Of a stretch of 64,000 nt of DNA, positions 16,652 to 64,000 are shown one piece after another. The stretch spans positions 2,339 through 66,338 of the forward strand of contig DAOUFX010000230.1 in NCBI GenBank assembly GCA_034429675.1, given 5' to 3'. The notes under the pieces are model-generated. The model saw only the letters and a program-made list of their open reading frames with translations. It made no database searches and was not told where the DNA came from. Each line of letters opens with the position of its first letter. Position 1 is the stretch's first letter. This DNA comes from Anaerolineae bacterium. GTDB lineage: Bacteria; Chloroflexota; Anaerolineae; B4-G1; SLSP01. The position numbers and the translations under genes were made by a program.

Positions 16652-18520
16652 GTGAGCAAGAAGCAAGAGACGACTGGAAATACTGCTCGGTCATTTCAGG
16701 ATACTGAAGTATGGCGGCGAGAGCTGTTTGGAAAAACCATGCTGGTTCTTTCCATACTATCGTTTGTCGTGCTGGTGTCAGGGTTGTATTATGTCTCAGC
16801 TACTCAAAAGGCCTGGTCGGCGCCGATTCTACTGTTTTTTTATGGATTGATTGTTGCTGCTGCTTTTGTCCAGAAAATTCCTTTCACCTGGCGCGTCTGG
16901 ACGTTTTTGAGCGTTTTGCTTGCAATGAGTGTTTTCGATCTGTTGACGTATGGTTGGGGCGAAGATGGAAGGATCTATCTACTCGGAGCGACGCTGTTCG
17001 CGATTCTATTTCTGGGCGCGCGACATGGCTTCGTTGTTTTTGTGATTTCCAGTACGATTTTGCTCGCTTATGTCATCGCCGCTTCGACTGGTATTCTATC
17101 ACTGGTTAGTTCCCCGGAAGTGATTCATCCTCCTGCGACCTTGTGGATGGGTTTGGCTATCTATATGGTGATTTCCACAGGCTTATTCATTTCATTCAAT
17201 TATATTCTCCCACGCCTGCTTGACGCTCTGCAAAAGGGTGTTGATCTTTCCCATGAGTTGGAGGTCGAACGCGCTCGATTGGCCGAGCGGACGAGCACTT
17301 TGCAAAACGCCAATGTGAACCTCCAACGTCGGGCGTTTTATTTGGAGTCAAGCACTCAAATTGCTCAGGCTCTGGCGACGATGGTCGAGTTAGATACTTT
17401 GTTGGACCAGGCCGTGAATTTGATTGCCGGTGTTTTCAGCTTTTCTCACGTCGCTGTTTATCTGATGGATGGTGAAGAAGAGTGGGCGGTGCTGCGCGCG
17501 GCTTCTTCTGCCGAGGGGCATCGCTTGTTGGCAAATCAGCATCGTGTTCTTTGTGGCAGCGATTGTATGATAGGGCAGGTATCCCAGGATTCACAGCCGC
17601 GCATGGCCGGGGTGACGCCTGATCTGCCGCCCGCTCGTTCAGAGATGACGTTGCCGTTGCTGGCAGGGACTCAGCGGATAGGGGTTTTGGATATTCAGAG
17701 TACTGAGGAAGCGGCTTTTGATCAGGATGATATGCGTGCATTGCAGGGATTGTCCGGTGTTCTGGCGGCGGCAATCAGCAATGCGAAGCGTTTGGGGGAT
17801 GAAGCCTCTGTGTTGGAGGCGGCAAGTCCGCTATACCATTTGGCGCGCCGTTTGGCAACGGCGCGCATCGAGCGTGAGATTTACACTGCAATTTTGGAGT
17901 CTTTGCGCGGATTTAGTCCGACGCAGGCCTTTATTTTCCGTTTTGAAGAGGGGCTTCCTTCTGCCTACATGGTAGCCGAGATGCGGAAGGGAGAGTTGGC
18001 ATTTCACGAGCAACGCGTGTGGGCGTCGGATATGCAATACCTCAGCGAGATTGTGGCCTTCAGTATGGCCGTTAGATCTTCTGTGATGATTGGCGACCTG
18101 AAAGAATATCAGTCAGGGCAGGCTGACATTGACGCCGTTTTGGTGCATCTGGCTGAGGATCTGGGAATTCTTTCCTTAGCTTTGACGCCGATGTGGGTCG
18201 GGTCGGTGCTTGTGGGAACTTTGTTGGTCATTTATCAGGCTCCGCATTATTTCACAGCTCTGCAGGGTCAGCTCTATCGTGTTCTGGCCGATTTAGGCGG
18301 ACGCGCTCTGGAGCGTATCTGGTTGCTTCAGCAAGCCCAGGCTCATTTGGAGAGTGAGCGTTGGATTAGAGAATTTGGTGAAGCTGTGACACGTATTCCC
18401 GATTTAGAAACGATGATTGCACAGTCGGCCACTTTGTTGCAGGATGTTTCAAAATCCGATGGCGTGTTGATTTCTTTGAGCGCACCTGAGCAGGAATCCT
18501 TGGAGGCGCCCGGTGAATAA
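16652..18520 (+). CDS. GAF-array member A: polytopic membrane N-domain + S-helix + GAF-A + GAF-B; no output domain
   Basis: GTG start 16652 has GGGGAGG 8 nt upstream. There are ~6 TM helices in aa 25–195. The coiled coil is LEVERARLAERTSTLQNANVNLQRRAFYLE. GAF-A runs FSFSHVAVYLMDGEEEWAVLRAASSAEGHRLLANQHRV...PDLPPARSEMTLPLLAGTQRIGVLDIQS. A divergent second GAF follows. The C-terminal tail is ...QAHLESERWIREFGEAVTRIPDLETMIAQSATLL. Confidence 0.8.
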   Translation: MSKKQETTGNTARSFQDTEVWRRELFGKTMLVLSILSFVVLVSGLYYVSATQKAWSAPILLFFYGLIVAAAFVQKIPFTWRVWTFLSVLLAMSVFDLLTYGWGEDGRIYLLGATLFAILFLGARHGFVVFVISSTILLAYVIAASTGILSLVSSPEVIHPPATLWMGLAIYMVISTGLFISFNYILPRLLDALQKGVDLSHELEVERARLAERTSTLQNANVNLQRRAFYLESSTQIAQALATMVELDTLLDQAVNLIAGVFSFSHVAVYLMDGEEEWAVLRAASSAEGHRLLANQHRVLCGSDCMIGQVSQDSQPRMAGVTPDLPPARSEMTLPLLAGTQRIGVLDIQSTEEAAFDQDDMRALQGLSGVLAAAISNAKRLGDEASVLEAASPLYHLARRLATARIEREIYTAILESLRGFSPTQAFIFRFEEGLPSAYMVAEMRKGELAFHEQRVWASDMQYLSEIVAFSMAVRSSVMIGDLKEYQSGQADIDAVLVHLAEDLGILSLALTPMWVGSVLVGTLLVIYQAPHYFTALQGQLYRVLADLGGRALERIWLLQQAQAHLESERWIREFGEAVTRIPDLETMIAQSATLLQDVSKSDGVLISLSAPEQESLEAPGE

Positions 18521-20213
18521 AGAGAGCAGAACCGAAGCGTTGCGCGTTACTGCGCCACGCCTTCGCGAGTGGCAATTGTCATTGCTAACGCAAATTTTGA
18601 GAATATTGGTCTTTACTGTGTTGTTGGTGATGTTGCCGGCTATCATTTTTGTGAGAGGGGAGCATCACGGTGTTGAGTTTATCGTTTTCTATGGAGTAGC
18701 CTTTTCTGTTTTGCTTATTTTGCGGTTTATAAAAAACATTCCCTACACGATAAAGGTTGTGGGATTGCTGGTTTTAATTTATGCATTGGGTATCTCGGCA
18801 TTGTTACGCGCGGGTTTAGGTAGCAATGCTAAGATTTTTTTGATCGCGTTGCCGTTCACGGCAATGTTGCTTCTGGGCAAATGGGAGGGATGGATTTGCC
18901 TGGTGGGGTCGTTTCTCACGATGGTGGTGTTTGGAGTACTGTTCTCCAACAATATCCTCTCCATTCCCACCGGGGTGCAGGTGATATCGCATAAGGTGGA
19001 AGCCTGGGGCAGTTATATCTTGACGATGACGTGGGCCGGCGCGTTTTTTGTGGCGACGCAAAGTTACATGCGGTCGCGTTTGGTGAGCGAGCTGGCGCAG
19101 AGCTGGGCGATGGCGCAGGAGCTGGATGTGCAGCGTGCGCAGGCTGAACGTGACGCAGTGCGCGCTCAGTTACATGCCGAACAGATGGGATGGATTGCGA
19201 ATTTTGGCAATATCTTGACTTCATTGCGAAATCGTGATTTGTTGGTTCAACGTGTTGTGCAAGATCTGGTCCAGAATTTTTCGCTGTATCAGGTCAATTT
19301 CTTTCTGGCCGATCGTTCTGGCGACGTATTGAACCTGGTCGCTGCCGCCGGCGCGCAAGGCCAGGATGGAGTTGGGGCGATGGTGCCGGAAATGGTAGGG
19401 GGACGTTCCCTTTTGGGGCAAGTCGCTCAGACCGGAAAAGAGCAGTCCCGCGTGCTTGATGTTGGTCAGCTTGCGTTGTTGCCTGACAGTCGTTATGAGG
19501 TGGTTTTGCCATTGGTGGTACGTGGTGAGCTTTTGGGAGTGCTGGATATTCACAGTACAGATGTCACTCTCTCCGAAGCTTCGCTTCAGCTTTTCCGCAT
19601 TGTTTCCGGCTATGTGTCAGGCGCTCTGGATACATTGCGCTTATTTGAAGAATCTGAGCGGCAGACTCACGAGATGCGTATGCTCTACGCACAGCATGTC
19701 GTGGCTTCCTGGCGTTCATTGTTAGCCGTTGAGTCTCTCCCGGCGTACTCGCTCGGCGCATTGCCAGCGGACCGTGCGCGTGAAGTGGCCGAGGAGGTGT
19801 TGCGCGATCGGCAATCCCGGTTGCTCACGTTGGCGGACGATCAGGGTCATTTGTTGGTAGTTCCTTTAATTGCTCGTGACGTGGTGTTGGGTTATCTGGC
19901 TTTTGTGAGGGCTTCTTCTAAAGGAACATGGGATCAAGAGTCGCGTGCTCTTATTGAGATGGCGGCCGATCGGTTGGCGTTGGCCCTGGATAACACCCGC
20001 CTCTTGATTGAAGTGCGACGGCAGGCTTTTTATCAAGAGCAACTGCGCCGTGTAGACGATGTCATTTGGCGCAATCCCAGCCCGGACGTCATTATGGCGC
20101 AGAGTGTGCGTGAACTCGGTCGTTTTTTGGGGGCCGGCGAGGTGCAATTGTATATCGCCCCCATGCAGCAGGAAGAGGGCCCCAATGGGGATAAATCGGT
20201 TGGCGATGAGTAA
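18513..20213 (+). CDS. GAF-array member B: polytopic membrane N-domain + coiled coil + GAF + GAF; no output domain
   Basis: GTG start 18513 overlaps the previous gene by 8 nt, and GGAGG lies 6 nt upstream. There are ~6 TM helices. The coiled coil is ELDVQRAQAERDAVRAQL. GAF-A runs FSLYQVNFFLADRSGDVLNLVAAAG...VVLPLVVRGELLGVLDIHS. GAF-B and the tail run ...DNTRLLIEVRRQAFYQEQLRRVDDVIWRNPSPDVIMAQSVRELGRFLGAGEVQLYI. Confidence 0.75.
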   Translation: MNKESRTEALRVTAPRLREWQLSLLTQILRILVFTVLLVMLPAIIFVRGEHHGVEFIVFYGVAFSVLLILRFIKNIPYTIKVVGLLVLIYALGISALLRAGLGSNAKIFLIALPFTAMLLLGKWEGWICLVGSFLTMVVFGVLFSNNILSIPTGVQVISHKVEAWGSYILTMTWAGAFFVATQSYMRSRLVSELAQSWAMAQELDVQRAQAERDAVRAQLHAEQMGWIANFGNILTSLRNRDLLVQRVVQDLVQNFSLYQVNFFLADRSGDVLNLVAAAGAQGQDGVGAMVPEMVGGRSLLGQVAQTGKEQSRVLDVGQLALLPDSRYEVVLPLVVRGELLGVLDIHSTDVTLSEASLQLFRIVSGYVSGALDTLRLFEESERQTHEMRMLYAQHVVASWRSLLAVESLPAYSLGALPADRAREVAEEVLRDRQSRLLTLADDQGHLLVVPLIARDVVLGYLAFVRASSKGTWDQESRALIEMAADRLALALDNTRLLIEVRRQAFYQEQLRRVDDVIWRNPSPDVIMAQSVRELGRFLGAGEVQLYIAPMQQEEGPNGDKSVGDE

Positions 20214-20227: not shown

Positions 20228-23068
20228 ATGTTGCCTGATTTGCGTCAAATTTTTAACCTATTGGCCTGGTTATTGGCGATCTCCCAATTGGTTTTTGGGC
20301 TTTATATTATTTTCCTAAATCGCGGTCGCCCGGCAAACCGATTGGCCGTGGGTGGAACCTTTGGACTCGTTGCGGTGAATTCGTACGCGTTTGCGCTGCT
20401 TCTGGGCGCTGACGATGTGTCCGTGGCCTTGCATGCGACGTACGTTCTGGCGGCTACTTCTCCCATGCTGGGATGGGCTTTTCTGAGCGATGCTTTGATT
20501 TTGTTGCGGCCTCGCTGGTATGCAAAACGTCTCGCTTTGTGGGTTGGCATTCTCATAGGTTTATTTGCCTTGCCGGTCTTACTTACTTTTGTTGACGTTG
20601 TTTGGGGGACTAATCTCTGGTATTCCGGCCTGGATGTTGACACCTACAAAGTGGGCTCAGTGACATTGATGATGTACACCAGGGGCTATTTCTCCCCGGT
20701 GATTCACGGTGTATTTGGGTATCTGCCCCTCGGATTGTTCCTGATTGGAGTACTGTGGTTGGGACACGTTCGCCCACACCCCGATTTTCCGCGGAGTCAC
20801 TATTGGGTGTGGCCCTTTTTATTGGTTCAGGTGCTGGCGACAGCGATGTATTTTGTCTCCTCGGCTCTATCCGCGCCGATCGTTGTCCCACTTGTTTTCA
20901 ATGGGCTGTGTGTCGGAACCTATGCCATTGCATTTTTCACCCCGGCGCTTCTGGGACACTCTATGCAACGGGGAAGTTTGCGAACACGCCTGACAATTCT
21001 CATTTTTGTCATTGCTGTGCCTATTTCGGTCTTTGGCGTTATGCTGGTAGGATACCAGGCCGTGGGGATGGTCGAGGAAAGCGAGACGCGACGGTTGGCT
21101 GCGCGCAACGATGCTTTAGCTACCAGCATCAATGTATGGCTCAATATTCACGTCAATGCTCTGGCTGAGGTTGCGAAACAACCCGCTATTGTGACAATGG
21201 ATCCTGAACAGCAGGGGCCGGTTCTTAAATTGATGGATGATATTTACTCCAGCGTGTATTTGGTCAGCACCACAGATTTGACCGGGATGAATGTCGCTCG
21301 GAGCGACATGAAAGAGCCCACGTATTACGGTGACCGGCAGTGGTTCTTAAATGCGCGCGCCGGGGTATCTCCGGCGTTGGAGATTGTGCTAGGGCGCACG
21401 AGCGGAGTGCCGGCTTTGGTTGGCGCGATGCCTATCACGCAGACAGACCAGACCATTGTGGGAATCGTGATGTTTGCCAGTACCTTGTCGGATGTCGCCG
21501 CTCAGGTCAAAACTACTGAAATAGGCGAGTCTGGATTCGCTTATATTGTGGATCAGGAAGATCAGATTCTGGCGCATTCCGACCCGGAGGTGACAGCTCA
21601 CGTGACCGATTTCAGCGCTTACCCACCTGTGATGCAGTTGCGCGCCAATGTCGAGGGATTGGTCAAGTTCCGCGACAATTCGGGGCAACGTTGGTGGGCT
21701 TATGTGCGCAGCGCCGGGCCAGGTTTGGGCGTCATTGTTCAACAGCGTGAAGAAGAAGTGTTGCGCGGGACGCGGCAATTTCAGTTGGTCTATTGGGCGG
21801 TCACGTTAGTCGGGGCCTTGTTGCTGACGACTCTGGGATTTATGGCTGTACGGCAGGCTTTCCGCCCGATTTTGACGTTGACCGAAACGGCTCAGGCCAT
21901 TGTGCAGGGGGATTTGGCCCGGCTGGCCCCCGTTGAAAGCGAAGACGAGATCGGCACGTTGGCGCAGACGTTTAATTTGATGACGGCGCAACTGCGCACT
22001 TTGATCGAGACTTTGGAAGAGCGTGTGGCAGAACGCACGAGAGCGTTGGAAAGGCGTGCCGAGTATCTGGCTGTGACGGCGCGAGTGAGCCGGGTAACGG
22101 CCTCGATTTTGGATGTGGACACTCTGCTCACGCGGGTTGCCAATCTGATTTCTGAACGGTTTGGGTTTTACCATGCGGCAATTTTCCTGATTGACGACAG
22201 CGGCGAATGGGCTGTGTTGCGCACCGTTTCTTCTGAAGATGGAAAGCGTATGTTGGCGCGAGGACATCGTTTGCGCGTTGGCGAGCAAGGGATTGTGGGG
22301 TATGTCTCAGGCGCCGGCCGTCCGCGCATTGCTTTGGACGTGGACGAAGATACCGTATGGGTCAAGAATCCCGACTTGCCGAACACCCGTTCGGAGATGG
22401 CTTTGCCTTTGCAGGTACAAAACCAGATCATTGGGGTATTGGATGTGCAGAGCGTGGAACCCAATGCTTTTTCAACCGAGGATGTGGAGACGTTGCGCAT
22501 CCTTGCCGATCAGGTAGCCATTGCGATCCAGAACGCGCGGCAGTTTCGACAGAGCCAACAGATGCTCCGGGATTTACAACATGCCTATAGCGAGCTGGGG
22601 CAGCGGAGTTGGGCGACGTGGACGGCCTCGCATGTAGGGTATCAGTATATGCCGACAGGCGTTACTGCGATTCAGGCCTCGGAAGTGGCGACAGAAACGC
22701 CATCTTCGACGCAAGTGACAGACCCGAATATTTTGTGGGTGCCGTTACAATTGATCGGCGGACGGGTTTTTGGCGCATTGCGTTTGCAACGGGACATTGC
22801 GTACCCCTGGACGGAACAGGAGATTCAATTTGTGCAACAGGCGGGGCAAGCGATTGCGCAGGCATTGGAGGTGTCGCGTTTGCTGGAAGAGGCGCAGCGG
22901 CGAACGACTCGCGATCGTCTGGTTGGGGATATTGCCAATCAGTTGCACACGACGCTCGATCCAGATGTGATTATGAAAACATTGGTGCGTGAGTTAGGCC
23001 GTGTTTTGGGCGCGCGGGTGGCCTCTGTCGAAGTGACCGGTGGGCGTCCTCCCACGGGGATCGTCTAA
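20228..23068 (+). CDS. GAF-array member C: ~8-TM membrane domain + periplasmic Cache-like + TM + HAMP + S-helix + GAF-A + GAF-B; no output domain
   Basis: The HAMP domain is RPILTLTETAQAIVQGDLARLAPVESEDEIGTLAQTFNLMTAQL. The S-helix is LEERVAERTRALERRAEYLAVTARV. GAF-A runs FGFYHAAIFLIDDSGEWAVLRTVSSEDGKRMLARGHRLRVGEQGIVGYV...PDLPNTRSEMALPLQVQNQIIGVLDVQS. The tail is RDRLVGDIANQLHTTLDPDVIMKTLVRELGRVLGARVASVEV. Confidence 0.85.
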   Translation: MLPDLRQIFNLLAWLLAISQLVFGLYIIFLNRGRPANRLAVGGTFGLVAVNSYAFALLLGADDVSVALHATYVLAATSPMLGWAFLSDALILLRPRWYAKRLALWVGILIGLFALPVLLTFVDVVWGTNLWYSGLDVDTYKVGSVTLMMYTRGYFSPVIHGVFGYLPLGLFLIGVLWLGHVRPHPDFPRSHYWVWPFLLVQVLATAMYFVSSALSAPIVVPLVFNGLCVGTYAIAFFTPALLGHSMQRGSLRTRLTILIFVIAVPISVFGVMLVGYQAVGMVEESETRRLAARNDALATSINVWLNIHVNALAEVAKQPAIVTMDPEQQGPVLKLMDDIYSSVYLVSTTDLTGMNVARSDMKEPTYYGDRQWFLNARAGVSPALEIVLGRTSGVPALVGAMPITQTDQTIVGIVMFASTLSDVAAQVKTTEIGESGFAYIVDQEDQILAHSDPEVTAHVTDFSAYPPVMQLRANVEGLVKFRDNSGQRWWAYVRSAGPGLGVIVQQREEEVLRGTRQFQLVYWAVTLVGALLLTTLGFMAVRQAFRPILTLTETAQAIVQGDLARLAPVESEDEIGTLAQTFNLMTAQLRTLIETLEERVAERTRALERRAEYLAVTARVSRVTASILDVDTLLTRVANLISERFGFYHAAIFLIDDSGEWAVLRTVSSEDGKRMLARGHRLRVGEQGIVGYVSGAGRPRIALDVDEDTVWVKNPDLPNTRSEMALPLQVQNQIIGVLDVQSVEPNAFSTEDVETLRILADQVAIAIQNARQFRQSQQMLRDLQHAYSELGQRSWATWTASHVGYQYMPTGVTAIQASEVATETPSSTQVTDPNILWVPLQLIGGRVFGALRLQRDIAYPWTEQEIQFVQQAGQAIAQALEVSRLLEEAQRRTTRDRLVGDIANQLHTTLDPDVIMKTLVRELGRVLGARVASVEVTGGRPPTGIV

Positions 23069-28541: not shown

Positions 28542-28546
28542 AGACT

Positions 28547-47952: not shown

Positions 47953-47988
47953 GCGGTAAAGGGTGCACCATAGTGAAAGAAGGCGATT

Positions 47989-48567: not shown

Positions 48568-48608
48568 ATGTCAGATGTTTATTGAAAGCTGAGTGAGGAG
48601 TGCCCATA

Positions 48609-51979: not shown

Positions 51980-52055
51980 AGGCAACTGAAACGCTTATGT
52001 CAGGGGACCGCCAGCGGATTACCGCGATTATTTTGGGCATGGATAGGTGTCGTTG

Positions 52056-54787: not shown

Positions 54788-56506
54788 ATGGAGAGTCAAA
54801 AGTTGCGACCTGGTAATGCATCACGAGAGGAAACGTCCCTGGAACTGACGACCTTGCAGCGCTCTTTTATGCAAGTTCTACTCAGGATTATAACCATAAC
54901 TGTTCCTGTCTCGTTGGGAATATCTGCATACGCTGCATGGAATGTGGGGCAAAAGGCGCTTACCTTCGTTTTGGGAGCGATTTACGTTGTGCTTTTGGTT
55001 TGTTACTTTTGGCAGAGCGCTGCTTTCCGTTTACGGACATGGGTGTTATTAGGGCTATTGGCAGCAAATGCTTTTATCACTTTGGCGAGAGGCGAACCTA
55101 ACGGAACTGCGCGAATGTTCTTGATTCTCATTCCCTTTCTGGCCCGGCTATTTTTGAACCGTAGGGATGGGATTGTGAGCATTGCCTTATGTCTGGTGCT
55201 GGATGGTCTGGCGGGGTTTCTACTCGATATCGGCGTTTTACCGCCTCCTATGGGGAGAGGGGACTTTGATATTCGCATGTGGCTGCTGCCGGGGACGCTG
55301 GTGTTGTTTACTGTGGATGTTCTGATTGTGATCGGCGTGGACTACTTTCTGCAAAACTTTGACGTTCTGTTGAACCGTAGCCGTTTGTTAGCCGACGACC
55401 TGAAATCACAGCGAGCGCATTTGGAAGCGCAGGTCAATGAGCGCACGACGACGATAGCTCGGCGTGCCAAGTATCTGGAGGCGACTGCCAAGATTGCGCG
55501 TGGAGCTTCTATTTCCCTGGATAATCCTGAGATGTTGTATGCGCACCTGGTGAATTTGATCGCCGAGCAACTGGGCTTCTCCAATGTCTCGTTATTTTTG
55601 GTGGATTCAAGCAACGAGTGGGTTGACTTGCGTGCTGCCTCCAGTGATGCCGGGAAGCACTTATTGGAACAAGGGCATCGTTTGCGTGTGGGAGGACAGG
55701 GTTTGGTGGGCTATGCCGCCGATCGGGGTGAAGTCAGAGTGGTGTCAGATGTGCTTGCAGATGTTCTGTTCAAGGCTCACGGGGTTTTGCCGACGACTCG
55801 CTCCGAAGTCGCTTTGCCGTTGCGTGTGGCCGATGCGATTATCGGCGTGCTGGATGTTCAGAGTGTAGACCCGCACGCTTTCAGTGAGGAAGACGTTGCC
55901 GTTTTACAATCGTTGGCCGATGAGGTTGCCGTGGCGGTAAGCAATGTACGTTTGTTCCAGCAACTACAGGAAAGTATTCAGGCCGAACGCCGTGCGCGCG
56001 GTGAGTCGTCGTTTGACGCCTGGCGCGAACAGCTTCAGGTACAAAGTGGTTTGGGGTTTGTGAAGCAGAGAAATGTTATGACCCTATCCGGCGATTTTTG
56101 GCAACAAGAGATGGCTTCGGCGGTGAAGTCGGGGCGCCCGGCATTGTCCCTCGCCGACCCGCGCACTCTGGCGGTGCCGATCAAAGCGGGTGGGCATGTT
56201 GTGGCCGTGATTGATGCGCGGCTCCCCGATGCGTTTAGTAAGTGGCAACCTGAGCAGATTTCTCTGTTAGAGGCTCTTTCCGATGAATTGGGTGAGGCGT
56301 TGGAGCGTGCGCGACTCTACGAGGAGACCCAACGCCGCGCTACGCGCGAACAACTTTCACGCGAAGTGACCACTCGTGTTCGTGAATCTCTGGATATTGA
56401 GACGATTCTGTTGACGGCAGTGAATGAGATTGGTAGCCGTTTGGGGGTAGAGACTGAGGTGTGGATGGGGATGGATCTGGCGTCTGATGAACATGCCGGC
56501 GGTTAG
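54788..56506 (+). CDS. GAF-array member U: polytopic membrane N-domain + S-helix + GAF-A + GAF-B + tail; no output domain
   Basis: There are ~6 TM helices. The S-helix is LEAQVNERTTTIARRAKYLEATAKIAR. GAF-A runs LGFSNVSLFLVDSSNEWVDLRAASSDAGKHLLEQGHRLRVGGQGLVGYA...LPTTRSEVALPLRVADAIIGVLDVQS. The tail is REQLSREVTTRVRESLDIETILLTAVNEIGSRLGVETEVWM. Confidence 0.85.
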   Translation: MESQKLRPGNASREETSLELTTLQRSFMQVLLRIITITVPVSLGISAYAAWNVGQKALTFVLGAIYVVLLVCYFWQSAAFRLRTWVLLGLLAANAFITLARGEPNGTARMFLILIPFLARLFLNRRDGIVSIALCLVLDGLAGFLLDIGVLPPPMGRGDFDIRMWLLPGTLVLFTVDVLIVIGVDYFLQNFDVLLNRSRLLADDLKSQRAHLEAQVNERTTTIARRAKYLEATAKIARGASISLDNPEMLYAHLVNLIAEQLGFSNVSLFLVDSSNEWVDLRAASSDAGKHLLEQGHRLRVGGQGLVGYAADRGEVRVVSDVLADVLFKAHGVLPTTRSEVALPLRVADAIIGVLDVQSVDPHAFSEEDVAVLQSLADEVAVAVSNVRLFQQLQESIQAERRARGESSFDAWREQLQVQSGLGFVKQRNVMTLSGDFWQQEMASAVKSGRPALSLADPRTLAVPIKAGGHVVAVIDARLPDAFSKWQPEQISLLEALSDELGEALERARLYEETQRRATREQLSREVTTRVRESLDIETILLTAVNEIGSRLGVETEVWMGMDLASDEHAGG

Positions 56507-56528
56507 TGTGTTTGTGGAGAACGAGCGT

Positions 56529-56777
56529 ATGAAAAGATTTAAAGCATTTTTGCGACAGCCAGAACTGATGGCCTTGCTTTTTATCCTGGGGGGCCTTGCC
56601 TTTTTTTACCCGGTTCTATTGATGTTGGAAGCTGCGCCGCCACGAACCACGATGCTTGCTGTCTATCTCCCTTGGGGTTTGATCACACTGGCGTTGATTT
56701 TTATTGGACGCGCCAGCTTCGCGGACTCCTCTTCTCCGGAAGCTACGTCGCAGGATGAAGGGGGGCGTGATGGCTAA
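56529..56777 (+). CDS. small 2-TM membrane protein, DUF4212-like (sodium:solute symporter-associated small subunit)
   Basis: ATG 56529 has GGAGAA 8 nt upstream; the track begins at 56487 and overlaps the previous gene. The 82-aa product has two TM helices (LMALLFILGGLAFFYPVLLML and LAVYLPWGLITLALIFIG). Its stop overlaps the downstream SSS-family start by 8 nt, the typical pairing of the DUF4212 small subunit with an SSS permease. Confidence 0.55.
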   Translation: MKRFKAFLRQPELMALLFILGGLAFFYPVLLMLEAAPPRTTMLAVYLPWGLITLALIFIGRASFADSSSPEATSQDEGGRDG

Positions 56778-59700
56778 TCCCTGGGGTGTCATCCTGGCCA
56801 TATCTGCTTACATTGCCCTGATGTTTGTGGCCGCACTCCTGGTCGAGCGCGGTGTTTGGAAGCGCCAGCTCACAGCTTACGGCGGCATGGTCTATGCTTT
56901 GGCTCTGACCGTTTATTGTACATCGTGGACTTTTTACGGCAGCGTGGGCAGCGCGGCCACCACAGGAATGCGTTTTGTCGCCGTCTATCTCGGCCCGGTC
57001 TTATCCGTCATTTTGTGGGGCAGCGTTCTGCGCCGTATGGTGCGCATTAAGAATTTGTACCGGATTACAACCATTGCCGATTTTATCTCGGCGCGTTATG
57101 CCAAATCCGAGGCTCTGGCCGTTGTGGCGACTCTTTTGGCCGTGGTGGGCGTCTTGCCGTATATTGCGCTACAGCTCAAAGCGGTCACCGACTCTTTTGC
57201 AGTGATTACAGCTGCCGATGTCGCTTTTAGCGCCTGGGCGACCGGTTATATTGCTCCGGTGGTGTTGGTTTTCATGATCGCTTTCACTGTTTTGTTTGGG
57301 GCGCGGCGTTTGGATCCCACCGAGCGGCATCCCGGCATGGTTTTTGCGTTGGCCGTTCTGGGCGTTGTGAGACTGGTTGCGTTTTTGGCCGTGGGAATTT
57401 TTGTCACCTATGGGTTGTTGGGGGGCTTCGGACAATTCTTCCAGACCTTAGAGACCAGTTCTTTTGCCGGATTGACCGACATGGCCGGCGGCGCGTCGGG
57501 GCCGTTGGTTTGGATGACTCACATCCTTTTGTCTATGTCTGCGATTTTGTTTTTGCCCCGGCAGTTCCACATGGCCGTTATAGAAAATGAGAATGAGAAG
57601 CATATCGGTACCGCCATGTGGGTTTTGCCGCTGTACATGATTTTGATCACGATTTTTGTTCTTCCAATTGCAGCCGGAGGACTGTTGTTGGGACAATCGG
57701 TAACGGTGGCCGATACTTTCGTCTTACGCCTGCCCATGCAGTATGGCCCCGGTTGGTTGACCATGTTGGTGTTTTTGGGCGGCCTTTCTGCGTCTTCGGC
57801 GATGGTCATGCTTACATCTTTGGCGGTCTCGACGATGATCGCCAATCACTTACTGTTGCCGTTGCTGATGAGGATACCCTCTTTGGGGTTTTTGCGACGC
57901 AATTTGTTGCCGGTGCGTTGGGGCGTGATCGCCATTGTGTTGGTGTTGGGGTATGTGTTCAACGCGCGTTTGGGCGAGTCCTACACGTTGGTGAACATGG
58001 GATTGATTTCCTTCGCAGCCGTCATGCAATTTGCCCCGGTTATTTTGGGAGGATTGTTCTGGCGACGTGGCAGTAAGGTCGGCGCCTTGATGGGATTGAT
58101 TGCCGGGTTCGCGATGTGGATGTACACATTGTTGATTCCTTCGTTTGTTAGAAGCGGTTGGCTTTCTTCATCCCTTCTCGACAACGGGCCTTTGGGCATC
58201 GGCTGGCTGCGTCCGGAGCAATTTTTGGGATTGCGCGGATTGGACAACTTGACGCACGCGGTGTTTTGGTCTCTGTTGTTGAATGTCGGTTTATACGTCT
58301 TGGGCTCGCTGTTTTTCCCTCAAAGTCAAGACGAGAAGGTTCAGGCTGATCGTTTTGTGGATATCCTGGCCCACAAAGGCGTGACGTTTGCCGCGGTGTA
58401 TGGGCACGCCCAGGTAAGTGTCGTGCTGAAAACAGACCAGCTGGAGCAAATTCTGAATAACTATTTCTTTGTTTCGGAATCCAGGGCTATGATTGCCCGC
58501 TGTTTGGAAAGAGTTGGGCTCAAAGATCAGCGTGAAACTACCGTGAATAAACTCGTCGAGTTTTATGATGAAGTGGAACGCGAACTGGCCGGTTCGCTTG
58601 GCACGGCAGCTGCGCATCGCACGATTGACCGGAAATCCCTTTTCACAGCAGAGGAGTCGGCGGAGTTGTCACGCACTTATGGCGAAATCCTGGCCGATTT
58701 GCAAATCGCGCCTGACGATCTGATGAAGCGGATTGATTATTACCGCGAGCGCGAAAATTTGTTGGCAGAACAGGCGTCCGGGTTGGAATCGCGGGTGGCG
58801 GCTCGCACTCGCGCGCTGGCGATGGCTGCAGAAGTGGGGCGTGCTGCGGCTTCAATCTTGGACCCTGAACGCCTGGTTAAGCAGGTGGTGGAGTTAATCC
58901 GCGAACGTTTTGATTTGTATTATGTCGGTCTGTTTTTGCTGGATGAGCTCCGCGAATGGGCGGTTTTGCGTGCCGGCACCGGAGCCGCCGGACAGATGAT
59001 GCTGGCGCGTGGGCATCGTTTGAAGTGTGACGAGGGTTCAATGGTGGGCTGGTGCATTGTGAATGCCCGGGCGCGCATCGCTCTGGAAGCCGAAAAAGAC
59101 GAAGTGCGCCATGTCACTGCCGAGTTGCCGGATACGCATTCCGAAGTAGCTGTGCCTTTGCGCTCGCGCGGACAGGTGCTCGGTGCGTTTACCATTCAAA
59201 GTACGCAGCTAAACGCCTTTGACGAAGCCGCCATCACGGTTTTTCAGATGGTGGCTGATCAAGTAGCGGTGGCTCTGGACAATGCGCGTTTGTTCGCCGA
59301 TGCCCAGGCCGCTATTGAAACCGAGCGGCGCGCCTACGGTGAGATCAATCGCCAGGCGTGGAAAGAGATGTTGCGCAGCCGGCCTGAGTTGCGTTACCGT
59401 CGCGATGCGCGCGGTGCTGTGCATTCAACATCTGGATCGCCGGCGCAAGAGATCGTGCGGGCGGTTCAGACTGGGGATGCAGTCTATTCCGAGGCCGCCA
59501 CTCTGGCGTTGCCCATCAGGATTCGTGACAATGTGGTGGGCGCGCTGCGTTTTCGCAAGCCGGAAACCAATGAGGCGTGGACGCCGGAGGAAGTGACCCT
59601 GTTGGAGACTCTCATTGAGCAACTGGAAGGAGCGTTGGAACGCGCCCGTCTTTATGACAATACACAACGTAGCGCCGCTCGCGAACGCACCATCGGTCAG

Positions 59701-59898
59701 GTTTCTGCAAGGATGCGCGAGCCGTTGGAATTGGAAGATGTCTTGAAAACGGCTGCGGATCAGATGCGTGAAGCTCTCGGCCTGGAAGAACTGGTGGTGC
59801 GCCTGGCTACCGGTCAGACGCTGGCGCAGTGGGCCGGAGACACTGCTTCGGGAGAGCCGGAGACCGACGATTCACCGATGGGAGATCAAAGCTTATGA
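56770..59898 (+). CDS. GAF-array member W: sodium:solute symporter (SSS family, ~13 TM) fused to S-helix + GAF-A + GAF-B + tail; no enzymatic output domain
   Basis: ATG 56770 has GAAGGGGGG upstream; the track begins at 56704. The SSS N-terminus is VILAISAYIALMFVAALLVERG...YGGMVYALALTVYCTSWTFYGSVGSAATTGMRF with ~13 TM helices to aa ~560. The S-helix is LESRVAARTRALAMAAEV. GAF-A runs FDLYYVGLFLLDELREWAVLRAGTGAAGQMMLARGHRLKCDEGSMVGWCI...ELPDTHSEVAVPLRSRGQVLGAFTIQS. The tail is RERTIGQVSARMREPLELEDVLKTAADQMREALGLEELVVRL. Confidence 0.85.
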   Translation: MANPWGVILAISAYIALMFVAALLVERGVWKRQLTAYGGMVYALALTVYCTSWTFYGSVGSAATTGMRFVAVYLGPVLSVILWGSVLRRMVRIKNLYRITTIADFISARYAKSEALAVVATLLAVVGVLPYIALQLKAVTDSFAVITAADVAFSAWATGYIAPVVLVFMIAFTVLFGARRLDPTERHPGMVFALAVLGVVRLVAFLAVGIFVTYGLLGGFGQFFQTLETSSFAGLTDMAGGASGPLVWMTHILLSMSAILFLPRQFHMAVIENENEKHIGTAMWVLPLYMILITIFVLPIAAGGLLLGQSVTVADTFVLRLPMQYGPGWLTMLVFLGGLSASSAMVMLTSLAVSTMIANHLLLPLLMRIPSLGFLRRNLLPVRWGVIAIVLVLGYVFNARLGESYTLVNMGLISFAAVMQFAPVILGGLFWRRGSKVGALMGLIAGFAMWMYTLLIPSFVRSGWLSSSLLDNGPLGIGWLRPEQFLGLRGLDNLTHAVFWSLLLNVGLYVLGSLFFPQSQDEKVQADRFVDILAHKGVTFAAVYGHAQVSVVLKTDQLEQILNNYFFVSESRAMIARCLERVGLKDQRETTVNKLVEFYDEVERELAGSLGTAAAHRTIDRKSLFTAEESAELSRTYGEILADLQIAPDDLMKRIDYYRERENLLAEQASGLESRVAARTRALAMAAEVGRAAASILDPERLVKQVVELIRERFDLYYVGLFLLDELREWAVLRAGTGAAGQMMLARGHRLKCDEGSMVGWCIVNARARIALEAEKDEVRHVTAELPDTHSEVAVPLRSRGQVLGAFTIQSTQLNAFDEAAITVFQMVADQVAVALDNARLFADAQAAIETERRAYGEINRQAWKEMLRSRPELRYRRDARGAVHSTSGSPAQEIVRAVQTGDAVYSEAATLALPIRIRDNVVGALRFRKPETNEAWTPEEVTLLETLIEQLEGALERARLYDNTQRSAARERTIGQVSARMREPLELEDVLKTAADQMREALGLEELVVRLATGQTLAQWAGDTASGEPETDDSPMGDQSL

Positions 59899-61847
59899 GC
59901 ATTCGAGTGAGTCTGGTCATATTGATTGTGTTGGTGGGAATTTTGCCGCTGGGGATTGCCGTTTTTGCGGCTACCAACCAGATGGAGACTCTGGCTATTG
60001 ACAGCGGCAAGGCCGCGCTGGAACAGATTGGCCGGGCTACCATTTACGATCAAGCCACTACGACGGCGCAACAGCTCGCCGCGTATTTCCACGCAAATCC
60101 TGAGATTGACCTGGCTCATTTGTTAGACTACGCCGACGATGAGACGATGCGATCTCTGGCGGTGCAGCCTGTTGGGAAAACCGGTTACACTGCCATCCTC
60201 GACGCCGATGGTGTGGTTTATTTTCATCCCAATCCTGCTTTGATTGGCATCAATATGGCTGTCCTGTCGGAGAAGTTGCCGGACTTTTGGCGCATTCTCT
60301 CTCGCGGCCTGGATGGGACCCTATCGTCCGGGGATTACGATTGGATCGAACCCGATGGAAGCACTCGCCAGAAATACATGGTGGTGATGCCTGTGGGCGA
60401 TACTCAATTCCGGGTGGCGGCCACCACCTATTTGGATGAGTTCTCTGAATCTACTCGCCAGATCGAGACCGCTTTGCGTGACGTGGCGACACTGACACGC
60501 CAACGTTTTTTCGGCACAATCTTGCTGGTTGCCCTGGGGGTTCTGATCCTTGCCTTGCTGACCAGTGTGTGGGTGACCACGCCTCTGCGCGAAATGGCCG
60601 AGGCTGCTGTTCTGGTCAGCGCGGGCAAGTGGGACGCTATCCAACCATCGCGGCGCCGTGATGAATTGGGAATACTGAATCAGGCATTTTACAACATGAC
60701 CGCTCAAGTACGCGGGCTGGTAAGCGGGCTGGAAAAACAGGTCGCCGAACGCACCCAACATTTGGAACGGCGGGCGCGCTATCTGGAAGCGACTTCGGCG
60801 GTTGCGCGGGGGGCGGCTTCAATTCTCGACCTGGAAGCTTTGTTGTCTGACATTGTTAATCTGGTCGGCCAGCAATTTGGCTTCTATCATGTTGCACTAT
60901 TCTTGCTCGGTGCGGACAATGAGTGGGTTGAGTTGCGCGCAGCATCCAGTGAGGGTGGGCGGCAGCTGCTCATTCAGGGACATCGTTTGCGGGTGGATGA
61001 TCCCGGACTTGTCGGGAGTGTTATCCGCGCCAGCGAATCACGCCTGGCGGTGGACGTCGAAGGTGAAGCGTCGCCATTTCGCGATGCCTATATGCCGGAG
61101 ACTCGCTCCGAGCTGGTTCTCCCGTTGCATGCGCGTGATCAGGTCATTGGCGTGCTGGATGTCCACAGTCGTGAGGCTGAGGCCTTTGATTCGGAAGATG
61201 TGACGGCTTTGCAGTCCCTGGCCGACCAGATAGCGGTCGCGATCAGTAATGCTTATCTCTTCCGGCAGGTCGAGGCCAGCGCTGAAGCAGAGCGTCGCGC
61301 CCGTGGCGAAGCTGAATTGGAAGCCTGGCAGGGTTTGTTGCACTCACGGATGAATCTGGCTTTCCGCAGTACCTCGCGTGGAACGGTTCCTGTCCCCGAT
61401 TTGTGGTATCCAGAGATGGTTCAAGCTATTCGGACGGCTCAACCGGTACAAGATAAGGAAGATGGCACGCGCTTTGCCGTCCCGATCCAGGTAGCCGGGC
61501 AGGTCATCGGCGTGATCGAGGGGCGCAAACCGCAGGCGACGGGCCCCTGGACGTCCGATGACATTGTTCTGATGGACACGTTAGCCGCGCAGTTAAATGC
61601 GGCTGTCGAGCGCGCCCGGCTCTACCATGAAACACAGCGCAGCGCAGCGCGTGAACGTGCGATTGCCGACGTTACTTCGCGTATGCGAGAACCGTTGGAG
61701 CTGGAAGATGTGCTGAAGGCTGCGGTCTCCGAAATCCGTCAGGCATTGGATATGGACGAACTGGCAGTGCGCCTGACGATGTCCGGGCCGTTGAAGCTCG
61801 ATGCCCATATGGAAGAAGGATTGGAAGATCATGAAAACCATAGGTAA
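59895..61847 (+). CDS. GAF-array member X: TM + Cache-like + TM + HAMP + S-helix + GAF-A + GAF-B + tail; no output domain
   Basis: ATG 59895 forms an ATGA overlap with the previous stop and has GGGAGA 8 nt upstream; the track begins at 59829. TM helices are VSLVILIVLVGILPLGIAVFAA and FGTILLVALGVLILALLTSVWV. The HAMP domain is TTPLREMAEAAVLVSAGKWDAI...ELGILNQAFYNMTAQV. The S-helix is LEKQVAERTQHLERRARYLEATSAVAR. GAF-A runs FGFYHVALFLLGADNEWVELRAASSEGGRQLLIQGHRLRVDDPGLVGSV...AYMPETRSELVLPLHARDQVIGVLDVHS. The tail is RERAIADVTSRMREPLELEDVLKAAVSEIRQALDMDELAVRL. Confidence 0.85.
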   Translation: MSIRVSLVILIVLVGILPLGIAVFAATNQMETLAIDSGKAALEQIGRATIYDQATTTAQQLAAYFHANPEIDLAHLLDYADDETMRSLAVQPVGKTGYTAILDADGVVYFHPNPALIGINMAVLSEKLPDFWRILSRGLDGTLSSGDYDWIEPDGSTRQKYMVVMPVGDTQFRVAATTYLDEFSESTRQIETALRDVATLTRQRFFGTILLVALGVLILALLTSVWVTTPLREMAEAAVLVSAGKWDAIQPSRRRDELGILNQAFYNMTAQVRGLVSGLEKQVAERTQHLERRARYLEATSAVARGAASILDLEALLSDIVNLVGQQFGFYHVALFLLGADNEWVELRAASSEGGRQLLIQGHRLRVDDPGLVGSVIRASESRLAVDVEGEASPFRDAYMPETRSELVLPLHARDQVIGVLDVHSREAEAFDSEDVTALQSLADQIAVAISNAYLFRQVEASAEAERRARGEAELEAWQGLLHSRMNLAFRSTSRGTVPVPDLWYPEMVQAIRTAQPVQDKEDGTRFAVPIQVAGQVIGVIEGRKPQATGPWTSDDIVLMDTLAAQLNAAVERARLYHETQRSAARERAIADVTSRMREPLELEDVLKAAVSEIRQALDMDELAVRLTMSGPLKLDAHMEEGLEDHENHR

Positions 61848-63561
61848 GTGGATCAGATGGTTTTGGGCAGCGCCGGTTTTCGCGGACGATGAAGAGAAAA
61901 CGCGAATGGCGGAGATACTCAATCCTTTGTTGGTGGGTCTGATGGGGTTGTTGGTATTCGCTGCATTCGCCAGTTTTTTTGTTTTTGCTCAGAAGGTAGC
62001 CAGCGGCATTGTGGTTGCGATTTTGTTCTTTATTTTGTTGCTTTCTCGATGGAGCATGTACCGCGGAAATTTGCGTTTTGCCGGCGCGCTCTTTGCGTGG
62101 GGGACGTGGCTCCCTTGTCTGCTCGTTGTCATTCTGTCCAACATGCGCAGCCTTCTTTCCGTCTCTCTGGTAGCGATTATTGTGATTGCTGGGGTGCTTT
62201 TGGGCCGGCGAACGGCCATTGTGATGGGAATTTCGACCAGTGCGGCGGTCCTGGTTCTGGCCATAGCGGTAATCCTGGGATACCAACTGCCGGATATGTT
62301 CCCTTCTCCAGTTCCGGCAAGTTGGGTCGTGATGACGGTGGGATTGGTGATGGTTTTGTTGCCGCTGAACATTGCACTGCGAGGAATGGGTGAGGCGTTG
62401 TCGCGATCGAAAATTTACGCGACCGAGTTGGAAGGCCAGCGGGAACAATTGGAAGTATTGGTGCGTGAGCGCACTCGCGATTTGATGCGCCGTACCAGCT
62501 ATTTGGGCGCGACCGCCATTGTAGCGCAAGAGGCAGCGATGGTAGTGGGCGATCTGGACAAACTGCTCGCGCGGGTGGTACAGATTGTGAGCGAACAGTT
62601 TGATTTTTACCATACCGGGCTTTTTTTGTTGAACGACAGCGGCGAGTGGGTAGAATTGTGCGCCGCTTCCAGTGAAGGTGGACGGCGGATGTTGGCGCGT
62701 GGGCATCGCCTACGCGTGGGAGTGGAAGGTATCGTCGGGTACGTCGCGCTCCATGGCGAACCACGGGTATCTTTGGATGTGGGTGAGGATGCCGTGTTTT
62801 TCAACAATCCCGACCTGCCGGCTACCCGTTCTGAGGTGGCTTTGCCCTTGCAACTGAGCCGCGAAATGATCGGGGTATTGGATGTACAGAGTACCGAGCC
62901 GGAGGCTTTCAGCAATGAAGATGTGCGTGTTTTGCAATCTCTGGCCGATCAGGTTGCCGTCGCCATCAATAACGCGCGTTTGCTGCGGCAGGTCCAACAA
63001 GTGGCCGAAGGAGAACGTCGCGCACGTAGCGAATTGATTCAGCAAGCCTGGGCTCGCTTTTTGCGGACGCAGTCGCAAGTTGCCTATTTGAGCAACCGCC
63101 GGGGAGTTTTCTCGGCGCAAAGCAAGTGGCAGCCTGAGATGGAAGTCGCGGTGCGTTCTGGCCGACCGGTAGTTAGTGAAGACGACCCTAATTATCTGGC
63201 AATTCCACTTCAAGTGGGCGGACAGGTTATTGGAATTCTGGATGGGCGCAAACCCGATGGTTGGACGACAGACGAAATTGCCATGGTGACTACTTTGACC
63301 GAGGAATTGGGCGATGCCCTGGATCGCGCTCGACTTTATCGTGAGACTCAACGCCGCGCTGCCCGTGAGCAAATGGCCGGGCAGGTAACGGCCAATATTC
63401 GCGAATCGCTGGATTTGGATACTGTTTTGCAGACGGCGGCGCGTGAGGTGGCTAAAGCTCTGAATTTGCCCAAGGTGGAAGTGTGGTTGGGGGCCGGCCC
63501 GCAGAATGTGCCGTCATCCCGGCCGGGAGGAAATGCGGATGGCGTTAACTCGAAATCTTAA
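61831..63561 (+). CDS. GAF-array member Y: polytopic membrane N-domain + S-helix + GAF-A + GAF-B + tail; no output domain
   Basis: The start is set at ATG 61831 (MKTIGKWIRWFWAAPVFADDEEKTR...), whose N-terminus parallels member H; the track begins at 61801. There are ~6 TM helices. The S-helix is LEVLVRERTRDLMRRTSYLGATAIVAQ. GAF-A runs FDFYHTGLFLLNDSGEWVELCAASSEGGRRMLARGHRLRVGVEGIVGYV...PDLPATRSEVALPLQLSREMIGVLDVQS. The tail is REQMAGQVTANIRESLDLDTVLQTAAREVAKALNLPKVEVWL. Confidence 0.85.
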   Translation: MKTIGKWIRWFWAAPVFADDEEKTRMAEILNPLLVGLMGLLVFAAFASFFVFAQKVASGIVVAILFFILLLSRWSMYRGNLRFAGALFAWGTWLPCLLVVILSNMRSLLSVSLVAIIVIAGVLLGRRTAIVMGISTSAAVLVLAIAVILGYQLPDMFPSPVPASWVVMTVGLVMVLLPLNIALRGMGEALSRSKIYATELEGQREQLEVLVRERTRDLMRRTSYLGATAIVAQEAAMVVGDLDKLLARVVQIVSEQFDFYHTGLFLLNDSGEWVELCAASSEGGRRMLARGHRLRVGVEGIVGYVALHGEPRVSLDVGEDAVFFNNPDLPATRSEVALPLQLSREMIGVLDVQSTEPEAFSNEDVRVLQSLADQVAVAINNARLLRQVQQVAEGERRARSELIQQAWARFLRTQSQVAYLSNRRGVFSAQSKWQPEMEVAVRSGRPVVSEDDPNYLAIPLQVGGQVIGILDGRKPDGWTTDEIAMVTTLTEELGDALDRARLYRETQRRAAREQMAGQVTANIRESLDLDTVLQTAAREVAKALNLPKVEVWLGAGPQNVPSSRPGGNADGVNSKS

Positions 63562-64000
63562 TCTTCGTTCGCGCGTGGGACGCTTTTTGCGTTGGCTGTG
63601 GAACATTGCCATTAAGCCGCATCTTTCGATTACGGAGAGCGGCCAGAGGCGTCAGGCGCAGTCGCTGTTGGTTTTGGCGTTGGCATTCTCACTGCTCCTT
63701 TTAGTAGGGTTGACGGTTGCGTTTTTTCTGTCTGGGACAGGGCTTAACCCGGTAATGGCGGCTCTCTTTGTGTTGTCTCTGCTGGTGTATGGCATTGGCC
63801 GTACCCGGTTTTTTACGTGGGGAGCCTTTTTCTTGGTGGTGGCGCTTCCGGTTGTGGTGCATTTCCAAATACTGACAAGAGGGGTTGAGCCGATTGGCGC
63901 TCTTTATTTCACGGTGCCGCTGGTCCTGATTGTTGGTAGCGTTTTCTTCTCTATCCGCGTTCAAATTTTTATGGCTGTGATCAATGCGATTGCCGCGTTT
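63539..64000 (+). CDS. GAF-array member Z (5' part; continues beyond the window): polytopic membrane N-domain of the same family
   Basis: ATG 63539 has GGGAGGA 7 nt upstream and overlaps the previous gene by 23 nt. The frame stays open to the window end. The N-terminus (MALTRNLNLRSRVGRFLRWLWNIAIKPHLSITESGQRRQAQSLLVLALAFSLLLLVGL...) follows the pattern of members H and Y: an amphipathic W-rich leader, then an R/Q-rich segment, then successive TM helices. It is absent from the ORF track because no stop occurs in the window. Confidence 0.65.
   Translation, partial: MALTRNLNLRSRVGRFLRWLWNIAIKPHLSITESGQRRQAQSLLVLALAFSLLLLVGLTVAFFLSGTGLNPVMAALFVLSLLVYGIGRTRFFTWGAFFLVVALPVVVHFQILTRGVEPIGALYFTVPLVLIVGSVFFSIRVQIFMAVINAIAAF

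Follow-up and report, generated by a model that had tools for sequence, protein, structure and literature searches.

The stretch of DNA analyzed here (the window) comprises 64,000 nucleotides from an Anaerolineae bacterium (contig DAOUFX010000230.1, positions 2,339 to 66,338). Most of it, from 16652 to 64000, is occupied by an array of paralogous genes coding for proteins with GAF domains. Only plus strand genes are called in this region: the list of open reading frames (ORFs), public gene calls and family hidden Markov models (HMMs) agree, which confirms the giant same-strand array described in an earlier note on this DNA. There are 19 complete large family genes (G01-G13 and G17-G22), one short member of 213 amino acids (G16) and one member cut by the end of the window. 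The genes are not all consecutive, as the earlier note had it: The run is broken at 46.8-49.0 kb by four genes which do not belong to the family, two slr1658-like and two slr1659-like (STAS). A membrane ORF of 96 amino acids lies further on, at 56487-56777. The four genes (47006-48953) had been missed. The C-terminal module which ends all the large proteins is also found alone, in the place where this gene cassette has its output protein.

All frames in the array are intact. Neighboring genes overlap by 4 or 8 nt, or are separated by gaps of 3-26 nt. Overlaps of -41, -70 and -47 nt are an artefact of selecting the longest ORFs; according to homologues and public gene calls, the starts are at about 40471, 56770, 59892 and 61831. 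The 23 nt overlap at 63539 agrees with the syntenic metagenome-assembled genome (MAG) GCA_016931835.1, in which five further family genes lie beyond the position where the window ends. ORFs longer than 150 amino acids in the minus strand are all nested within plus strand genes and are not called in public assemblies. Identical DNA is found in two JGI metagenomes (3300023207 and 3300029799), where genes are called exclusively in the plus strand. The plus strand holds every long coding ORF beyond 13.4 kb and, over the whole 64 kb, all confident genes except one. GC skew is positive across the window and cumulative GC skew climbs monotonically; together with gene orientation, this suggests that the whole 64 kb region belongs to the leading strand. 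Promoter and terminator scans of the region were both at chance level, so the operon structure is deduced solely from the spacing of the genes.

The N-terminal inputs of the proteins are diverse and the types given in the earlier note are borne out: six-transmembrane (6-TM) or MASE11 domains, dCache or sCache with HAMP, TM-HAMP, Peripla_BP (G06) and PAS domains (six in G12). The symporter-type input of G20 is also correct: residues 7-459 match a structure named "histidine kinase" (PDB 10ed_A, E 8e-67), an SLC5/CbrA-type transporter domain which Pfam missed. With a crude MASE11 HMM, no connection was found between the 6-TM inputs of G08 and G22 and those of the MASE11 members.

After the input, the proteins share a collinear core. 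The AlphaFold2 model of the G22 core, based on an alignment of 84 sequences (predicted local distance difference test, pLDDT, 88), has a 46-residue S-helix, a complete six-strand GAF-A, a 50-residue helix, a reduced GAF-B, a 46-residue helix and a tail. The reduced domain (mini-GAF-B) is formed by a β-hairpin, one short helix, three strands and a terminal helix. It is a GAF with only 4-5 strands, without the helix 2/strand 3 part of the pocket. The tail is a 15-residue helix followed by an unpaired strand. We call C-module the combination of mini-GAF-B, long helix and tail. A Foldseek search with the G22 model found only single GAFs and tandem-GAF modules (PDE5A, PDE2A, CyaB2, phytochromes), and the alignments to 3lfv, 3mf0, 1ykd and 1mc0 span 340-390 columns. 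The common S-helix, GAF-A and tail agree with the earlier description of the core. On the other hand, GAF-B is a reduced GAF, and the tail is a truncated third one.

Three observations lead to this reading of the tail. NCBIfam aligns it with the first helix and strand of a GAF (Tlr1612, positions 272-303); in G05 the first tail runs on into another mini-GAF, followed by a second tail; in poly-GAF proteins, the same stretch is the junction of successive GAFs. The chain is thus best described as GAF-A, mini-GAF-B and the first third (helix 1 and strand 1) of a further GAF. Two other possibilities were discarded. A circularly permuted GAF, formed by GAF-B and the tail, does not agree with the models, which show a self-contained reduced GAF, an extra helix and an unpaired tail strand; it is also unnecessary, because the tail continues into a further GAF in G05 and in poly-GAF proteins. 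A decayed HisKA helix (IRESL compared with HELREPL) has its register off by one, profiles indicate the N-terminus of a GAF, and there is no HisKA signal. The copy number of C-terminal units varies within the array: besides the tandem duplicate in G05, G04 has a GAF-like insertion of about 200 residues between the AYGE linker and the mini-GAF.

In every complete member, the protein ends 10-45 residues past the tail. The module ends all 19 large proteins of the window, as well as 29 complete family genes of three further arrays. As proposed in the earlier note, no catalytic or DNA-binding output is found in the members: Pfam (E ≤ 0.01), NCBIfam and fold searches gave no such domain, and none lies in the C-terminal 250 amino acids. 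A GAF was always present in Pfam. HisKA has no Pfam match in any of 20 members; the same search detects it at 9e-19 in the histidine kinase encoded at the head of the cluster. HATPase_c and MCPsignal also have no Pfam match in the members, and there are no che genes. GGDEF, EAL, HD-GYP, class III cyclase and phosphodiesterase (PDE) catalytic domains are absent from the members in Pfam, NCBIfam and fold searches. No member has a STAS domain on the sensor itself, as in an RsbR-type layout: STAS is confined to the separate slr1659 proteins, which are nevertheless encoded inside the array, so the absence of STAS previously noted holds for the sensors only. An anti-phage defense system was rejected, as PADLOC gave no match for five representative proteins.

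Proteins which end in what resembles a truncated domain might be decaying, functionless remnants, left either by histidine kinases or by the breakup of a giant poly-GAF gene, since poly-GAF proteins with up to about 20 GAFs do exist. However, all ORFs are intact with the same end point, and thousands of proteins from many lineages have kept this ending. Five orthologue pairs from the window and GCA_016931835.1, with 71-82% amino acid identity, have dN/dS values of 0.08-0.15 (dS 1.2-1.7), so the genes are under purifying selection. These values and the intact frames rule out pseudogenised kinases, which the earlier note had named as a possible refutation, and decay is effectively refuted. The duplications must be old, since the core identity of paralogues is only 17-48% (median 30%).

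The C-module might also be a cryptic enzyme or nucleic acid binder which current profiles do not recognize. It is located where an output domain would be, and its linker helix is conserved (35%) and basic, with an Arg-rich helix (TQRRAARE). We find such an activity very improbable, and turn to the evidence from the four genes which interrupt the array.

These genes form two pairs, with an slr1659-like gene after each slr1658-like gene. The slr1658-like proteins have 192-193 amino acids, and both score above the cutoffs of the NCBIfam slr1658 models, the "cyano" equivalog among them. Protein a has 218.6 bits with NF052618 (cutoff 200), 205.8 bits with NF047703 and a weak match to SiaB_fam_kinase; a PDB sequence search with this protein gave no match at E ≤ 10. 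The slr1659-like proteins, with 114-116 amino acids, pass the slr1659 superfamily model. Protein a has 124.9 bits with NF047705 (cutoff 100) and weak matches to anti-sigma antagonists and STAS, protein b matches Pfam STAS (4e-6) and SiaC (1e-3). Characteristic motifs are conserved: FxNSSG (STAS-type, at the position of the SpoIIAA phospho-serine) is kept in 133 of 150 slr1659 relatives and appears as FLNSSG in both window proteins, while the ATPase box ANE[LM]LEN is kept in 164 of 168 slr1658 relatives, with ANELLEN in window protein a. To judge from their sequences, the slr1658 proteins of the window weakly resemble SiaB and are putative GHKL kinases. The array is therefore not "sensor-only": it holds two SiaB-like kinase/STAS pairs, with a histidine kinase and two receivers at its head. 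The slr1658 family is a genetically proven regulator, since loss of slr1658 in Synechocystis deregulates pgr5 about 1000-fold (PMC7555055, PMC6525291). We have found no biochemistry of the slr1658/slr1659 family in the literature searched.

About 160 slr1658 loci (L numbers denote these and other loci fetched) were obtained from species genomes and metagenomes, and their neighbors were classed by small HMMs checked against Pfam. Chloroflexota, filamentous cyanobacteria, Beggiatoa-type sulfur bacteria, Deinococcota and Actinomycetota are among the taxa represented. As a rule, a sensor-PP2C (SpoIIE) gene comes first, followed by slr1658, slr1659 and the gene for the output. The gene which follows slr1659 codes for a PAS-class III cyclase at 65 loci, for a histidine kinase at 10 and for a short C-module protein at 8, all of the latter from Anaerolineae arrays. 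Among the arrays, those of the L008/L089/L090 lineage have PP2C, whereas the window lineage and L173 lack it. Tandem duplication of slr1658/slr1659, as found in the window, is frequent in several phyla, with the orders 58-59-58-59, 58-58-59 and 59-58-58-59 (L007, L009, L031, L053, L079, L087, L088, L099 and L150). Another Anaerolineae array contains a pair of proteins with 116-120 amino acids (L170:18352-19073), one of them with a weak SpoIIAA-like match (PF11964), unrelated to slr1659. Arrays of this kind may repeatedly be accompanied by small STAS-type proteins.

G16 lies directly downstream of slr1659 b, which is the output slot of the cassette. It has only mini-GAF-B and the tail, with no enzymatic effector domain; family HMMs give 116 bits for the C-module and 68 bits for the tail. 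Its first 55 residues or so are LLSEIAALRQEVATLQQERDDIQTIMDITVEHSDGVTAEMEERL. Cyclases and kinases which serve as outputs in other phyla start with the same motif; a Chloroflexia cyclase, for instance, has LQEELAALRQEVENLQQEKADLEMLLEMTTEHSDTVEEEL. In the AlphaFold2 model of G16 (pLDDT 83), the N-terminal motif region forms two long helices before the mini-GAF. A stalk HMM, built only from cyclase and kinase outputs, was compared with 7,985 ORFs, all of them from loci pre-chosen for having slr1658: G16 was found with E 2e-14, the only match in the window, and matches elsewhere were ORFs following slr1659. The N-terminal motif, with consensus SREQLLLEIERLRQQVEDLKEEKADLEILLETTTEHSDTVEEELEERAEE, is common to the proteins after slr1659 whatever their effector (cyclase, histidine kinase, GAF module and others). 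Examples are L059:10942-12513, L011:11034-12506, L041:10886-12364 and L164:3397-5469, with about 120 other ORFs; some proteins have several copies of the motif, up to five in L164.

The short form is always seen alongside slr1658/slr1659, in three or more lineages with 58-100% identity. All five short-form relatives in this identity range are on contigs which equal in length that of an slr1658 relative. In the one such locus which we have opened (L173), the order is array, slr1658, slr1659, short form, array. Because of its position in the output slot and its stalk motif, shared with cyclase and kinase outputs, G16 appears from its sequence to be a genuine output of the cassette, with the enzyme replaced by the C-terminal module of the array. 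SiaC is known to activate SiaD by binding to its helical stalk (PMC8457831). By analogy, the stalk motif is likely to be the docking site of slr1659.

The C-module is therefore found in two situations: It replaces a cyclase or kinase behind the stalk, and it ends about 20 receptors driven by HAMP or S-helix. In both it behaves like an output domain. Its presence as a stand-alone protein in the output slot of a partner-switching cassette strengthens the common output proposed in the earlier note; that it acts by protein contact, also proposed there, is an inference. We conclude that the C-module is probably a signaling output, so far uncharacterized.

The model we favor is as follows. The array would be a large repertoire of dimeric receptors. 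Varied inputs (MASE11, Cache-HAMP, periplasmic-binding protein, PAS, SLC5) would act through the S-helix and the very conserved GAF-A on the shared C-module. Its switching would depend on how the coiled-coil dimer is arranged, as in cyclase, GGDEF or DHp domains, and it would signal by binding a partner, not by catalysis. The embedded SiaABCD-like switch, with two copies of slr1658 kinase and slr1659 STAS protein, would control G16: dephosphorylated slr1659 would dock on its N-terminal stalk, as SiaC does on SiaD. G16 and the 20 or so sensors would speak the same output language and converge on one target, or on each other through mixed oligomers. Candidate recipients in cis are slr1658/slr1659, other array members and, as the nearest ones, the head histidine kinase with its two receivers. 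We infer the output role of the module, the binding of slr1659 to G16 and the convergence of sensors on a common target, and we give a probability of roughly 0.4 to the model as a whole, a non-catalytic output driven by dimer geometry with a stand-alone copy under a partner switch. A broader proposal, that mini-GAF and tail constitute a new class of non-catalytic outputs through which more than 25 receptors per array and the switch-controlled copy converge on a single hub, is doubtful.

Several observations weigh against the model. The short form is rare, with 7 matches in its search and the L008-type lineage found separately, and arrays such as L171 and L172 have no cassette within 20 kb, so the link with the partner switch may be a lineage-specific addition. 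No SpoIIE (PP2C) domain is found anywhere in the window. As this canonical component is missing, the switch may lack a part or rely on one encoded elsewhere. In monomer models, the tail strand has no pairing partner and a lower pLDDT of about 70-80, and the choice of loci limits the significance of the stalk search. Finally, conservation among paralogues is higher in GAF-A (39%) than in the C-module (27-30%): As the most conserved region, GAF-A could be the real transmitter.

A separate alternative is that GAF-A binds a common small molecule, such as a cyclic nucleotide or a metabolite. The proteins would then be ligand-gated scaffolds or sinks, with membrane inputs tuning ligand affinity and the C-module playing a structural role. 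GAF-A is a complete six-strand GAF in a tandem layout which resembles the regulatory modules of PDE5A, PDE2A and CyaB2, and class III cyclase is the usual output of the cassette in other phyla. However, its conserved residues are largely, as judged by eye, those of the general GAF_2 consensus, and an NKFDE-type cyclic nucleotide motif is not evident on reading the GAF consensus. No cyclase or phosphodiesterase is detected by Pfam in the window, and G16 occupies the output slot without a GAF-A. We thus consider ligand binding by GAF-A as an improbable alternative to an output role of the C-module.

The genes at the head of the cluster suggest another alternative. Two single-domain receivers and a histidine kinase precede the array in the same orientation, a gap of 39 nt separates the stop of the kinase from G01, and just upstream of REC1 lies the region's best promoter-like site (13346-13375, 10/12 matches with a TG extension). 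The array proteins might be accessory sensors of histidine kinases, forming mixed dimers or complexes through the HAMP/S-helix/GAF coiled coil with kinases which contain a GAF, in the first place with this one. The C-module would be a dimer cap, and many inputs would modulate one two-component pathway ending at the two receivers. The kinase is laid out like the family, as TM-sensor-HAMP-GAF, until the two diverge, and many poly-GAF relatives have 200-650 residues past the last GAF, with room for an output domain. Nevertheless, it is not a family member: its GAF has a generic score of 58 bits on the family GAF-A profile, compared with 100-252 bits for members, and it has neither C-module nor tail. 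Furthermore, there is no kinase within 20 kb in four other arrays, and a mere cap leaves the stand-alone module in the output slot unexplained. This alternative seems unlikely, although less so than a role of GAF-A as a ligand sensor, and we retain the C-module as the proposed output.

Table 1. Genes of the array, the embedded cassette and the head of the cluster. Positions refer to the 64,000 nt window.
Feature	Position	Strand	Basis or remark
REC1, single-domain response-regulator receiver	13413..13814	+	NCBIfam receiver matches
REC2, second single-domain receiver; overlaps kinase start	13854..14273	+	NCBIfam
TM-sensor-HAMP-GAF-HisKA-HATPase histidine kinase	14258..16612	+	Pfam
G01: MASE11 6-TM input, GAF-A, divergent C-module	16652..18520	+	Pfam, family HMMs
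G02: MASE11 input, GAF-A, C-module	18513..20213	+	
G03: multi-TM, dCache_1, HAMP, GAF-A, C-module	20228..23068	+	
G04: dCache_1, HAMP, GAF-A, extra GAF-like insertion, C-module	23083..25854	+	
G05: dCache_1, HAMP, GAF-A, duplicated C-module	25851..28541	+	
G06: cytoplasmic LacI-type periplasmic-binding-protein fold (Peripla_BP), GAF-A, C-module	28547..31336	+	
G07: dCache_1, HAMP, GAF-A, C-module	31333..33711	+	
G08: 6-TM input (no Pfam match), GAF-A, C-module	33726..35444	+	
G09: MASE11, GAF-A, C-module	35459..37246	+	
G10: 2-TM, HAMP, GAF-A, C-module	37236..38708	+	
G11: MASE11, degenerate GAF-A, C-module	38712..40484	+	
G12: cytoplasmic, six PAS, extra GAFs, GAF-A, C-module	40444..45024	+	likely start ~40471
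G13: TM-sensor-TM-HAMP, GAF-A, C-module	45028..46806	+	
slr1658-family protein a (DUF6272; SiaB-like GHKL putative Ser/Thr kinase)	47006..47587	+	
slr1659-family STAS-like protein a, FLNSSG phospho-site-like motif	47602..47952	+	
slr1658-family protein b	47989..48567	+	NF052618 226.6 bits
slr1659-family STAS-like protein b	48609..48953	+	NF047705 157.4 bits
G16: short stand-alone form: stalk motif (residues ~12-57), mini-GAF-B, tail	48966..49607	+	
G17: dCache_1, HAMP, GAF-A, C-module	49625..51979	+	
G18: multi-TM, dCache_1, HAMP, GAF-A, C-module	52047..54761	+	
G19: MASE11, GAF-A, C-module	54788..56506	+	
96-aa two-TM ORF ahead of G20; gene in public assemblies	56487..56777	+	
G20: SLC5/CbrA-like 12-TM transporter-type input, GAF-A, C-module	56770..59898	+	
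G21: sCache/Cache_3-Cache_2, HAMP, GAF-A, C-module	59892..61847	+	
G22: 6-TM input, GAF-A, C-module; its core modelled	61831..63561	+	
Next family member, start only (membrane input), cut by window end	63539..64000	+	sequence read

The genes which precede the cluster are unrelated housekeeping genes. They are separated from it by a stretch of low GC (0.48 at 12605-14000), between the gene for a YfhO-like membrane protein and the receiver genes, which contains the sole convincing minus strand ORF near the array (188 amino acids, with a weak HIT-domain match) as well as the promoter-like site upstream of REC1. Inside the array, the 96 amino acid ORF overlaps the start of G20 and is conserved in the related MAG, as an 81 amino acid gene (L001). 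It recalls the small membrane ORFs which precede some solute:sodium symporters and CbrA-type kinases. A gene for an NMT1/THI5-like substrate-binding protein (PF09084) is found at a conserved position in arrays of related lineages, in L089:17379-18347, L173:16376-17341 and L001:1-185; the window does not have it at the corresponding place (gap 51979-52047).

The family is not limited to this genome. We have recovered at least 6,269 relatives. Those with a named source are called "GAF domain-containing protein [Anaerolineae bacterium]", with no output Pfam domain among the ones listed. Three distant members picked at random are each found in 20 kb with 9-11 family genes in the same strand, and the other neighborhoods examined, from several Anaerolineae lineages, are each a similar array. 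A C-module profile search among 1.84 billion representatives was swamped by giant poly-GAF proteins and is not a measure of the distribution of the family. The giant proteins (P0241-P0390; P0241 has 3792 amino acids and P0242 3952) contain up to about 20 consecutive GAFs and nothing else in Pfam. About one quarter of them end in the same truncated-GAF tail, the rest have 200-650 further unannotated residues; module and tail are terminal in P0249 and P0339, for example.

The window cassette has the same order and logic as SiaABCD of Pseudomonas aeruginosa, formed by a PP2C phosphatase (SiaA), a kinase (SiaB), a STAS-like phosphoprotein (SiaC) and a diguanylate cyclase (SiaD). Common features are a SiaB-like GHKL protein, a small STAS/SiaC-like protein with a phosphorylatable Ser motif and an output which starts with a helical stalk; related lineages also have a sensor-PP2C before the cassette. 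Unlike SiaABCD, the similarity of the window proteins to SiaB and SiaC is weak, far below cutoffs, there is no PP2C, the kinase/STAS pair is duplicated and the output is a mini-GAF and tail module, with no GGDEF or enzyme. Another close system is the slr1657-slr1660 operon of Synechocystis sp. PCC 6803: the window proteins pass the slr1658 and slr1659 NCBIfam models. In the loci read of filamentous cyanobacteria and Chloroflexaceae (Microcoleus, for example, not Synechocystis itself) the cassette is flanked by HAMP-PP2C and PAS-class III cyclase, whereas the flanks in the window are array sensors and the short C-module protein.

The core may be compared with the tandem GAFs of PDE2/5/6/10/11 and CyaB1/CyaB2, which likewise have two GAF folds on long helices, likely as a parallel dimer relaying signals along the helices. 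The array proteins differ in having no catalytic domain after the GAFs, a reduced GAF-B and a third-GAF fragment at the end; furthermore, their inputs are N-terminal to the GAFs, whereas in PDE and CyaB the GAFs themselves are the inputs. Repertoires of methyl-accepting chemotaxis proteins offer an analogy of logic: paralogous receptors with swapped Cache, PAS, HAMP and TM inputs and one non-catalytic contact module. Nevertheless, the array has no MCPsignal and no che genes, a GAF fold takes the place of the four-helix hairpin, and the genes form one co-directional array. Poly-GAF giants have the same GAF units and Arg-rich linkers, and the tail of the family is the start of their next GAF; the family stops after helix 1 and strand 1, while most giants continue for 200-650 residues after their last GAF.

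None of the folds is new, and databases already list the proteins as "GAF domain-containing protein". On the other hand, literature searches (DUF6272, MASE11, slr1659, Anaerolineae with GAF, output-less GAF sensors) found nothing on such arrays. As far as the literature could be searched, there appears to be no description of the array, its fixed truncated-GAF ending, the use of this ending as the output of a SiaABCD-like cassette or the stalk motif which cyclase, kinase and GAF-module outputs have in common.

Sediments, digesters and activated sludge are rich in filamentous Anaerolineae. To our knowledge, almost nothing is known about how these bacteria sense their surroundings. With at least 6,269 relatives and arrays of tens of genes, the family seems to make up a large share of their sensory apparatus. 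The canonical order of the slr1658/slr1659 cassette and its conserved stalk motif, both directly testable, provide a handle on this system in cyanobacteria, Chloroflexota, giant sulfur bacteria and others. The contact partner of the C-module, once shown, would define a new wiring of many inputs to one response, and would also explain the role of "output-less" GAF sensors in general. If the module does represent a new class of outputs, these bacteria would integrate signals much as chemoreceptors do, by a system of GAF folds which is distinct from two-component, chemotaxis and second-messenger signaling.

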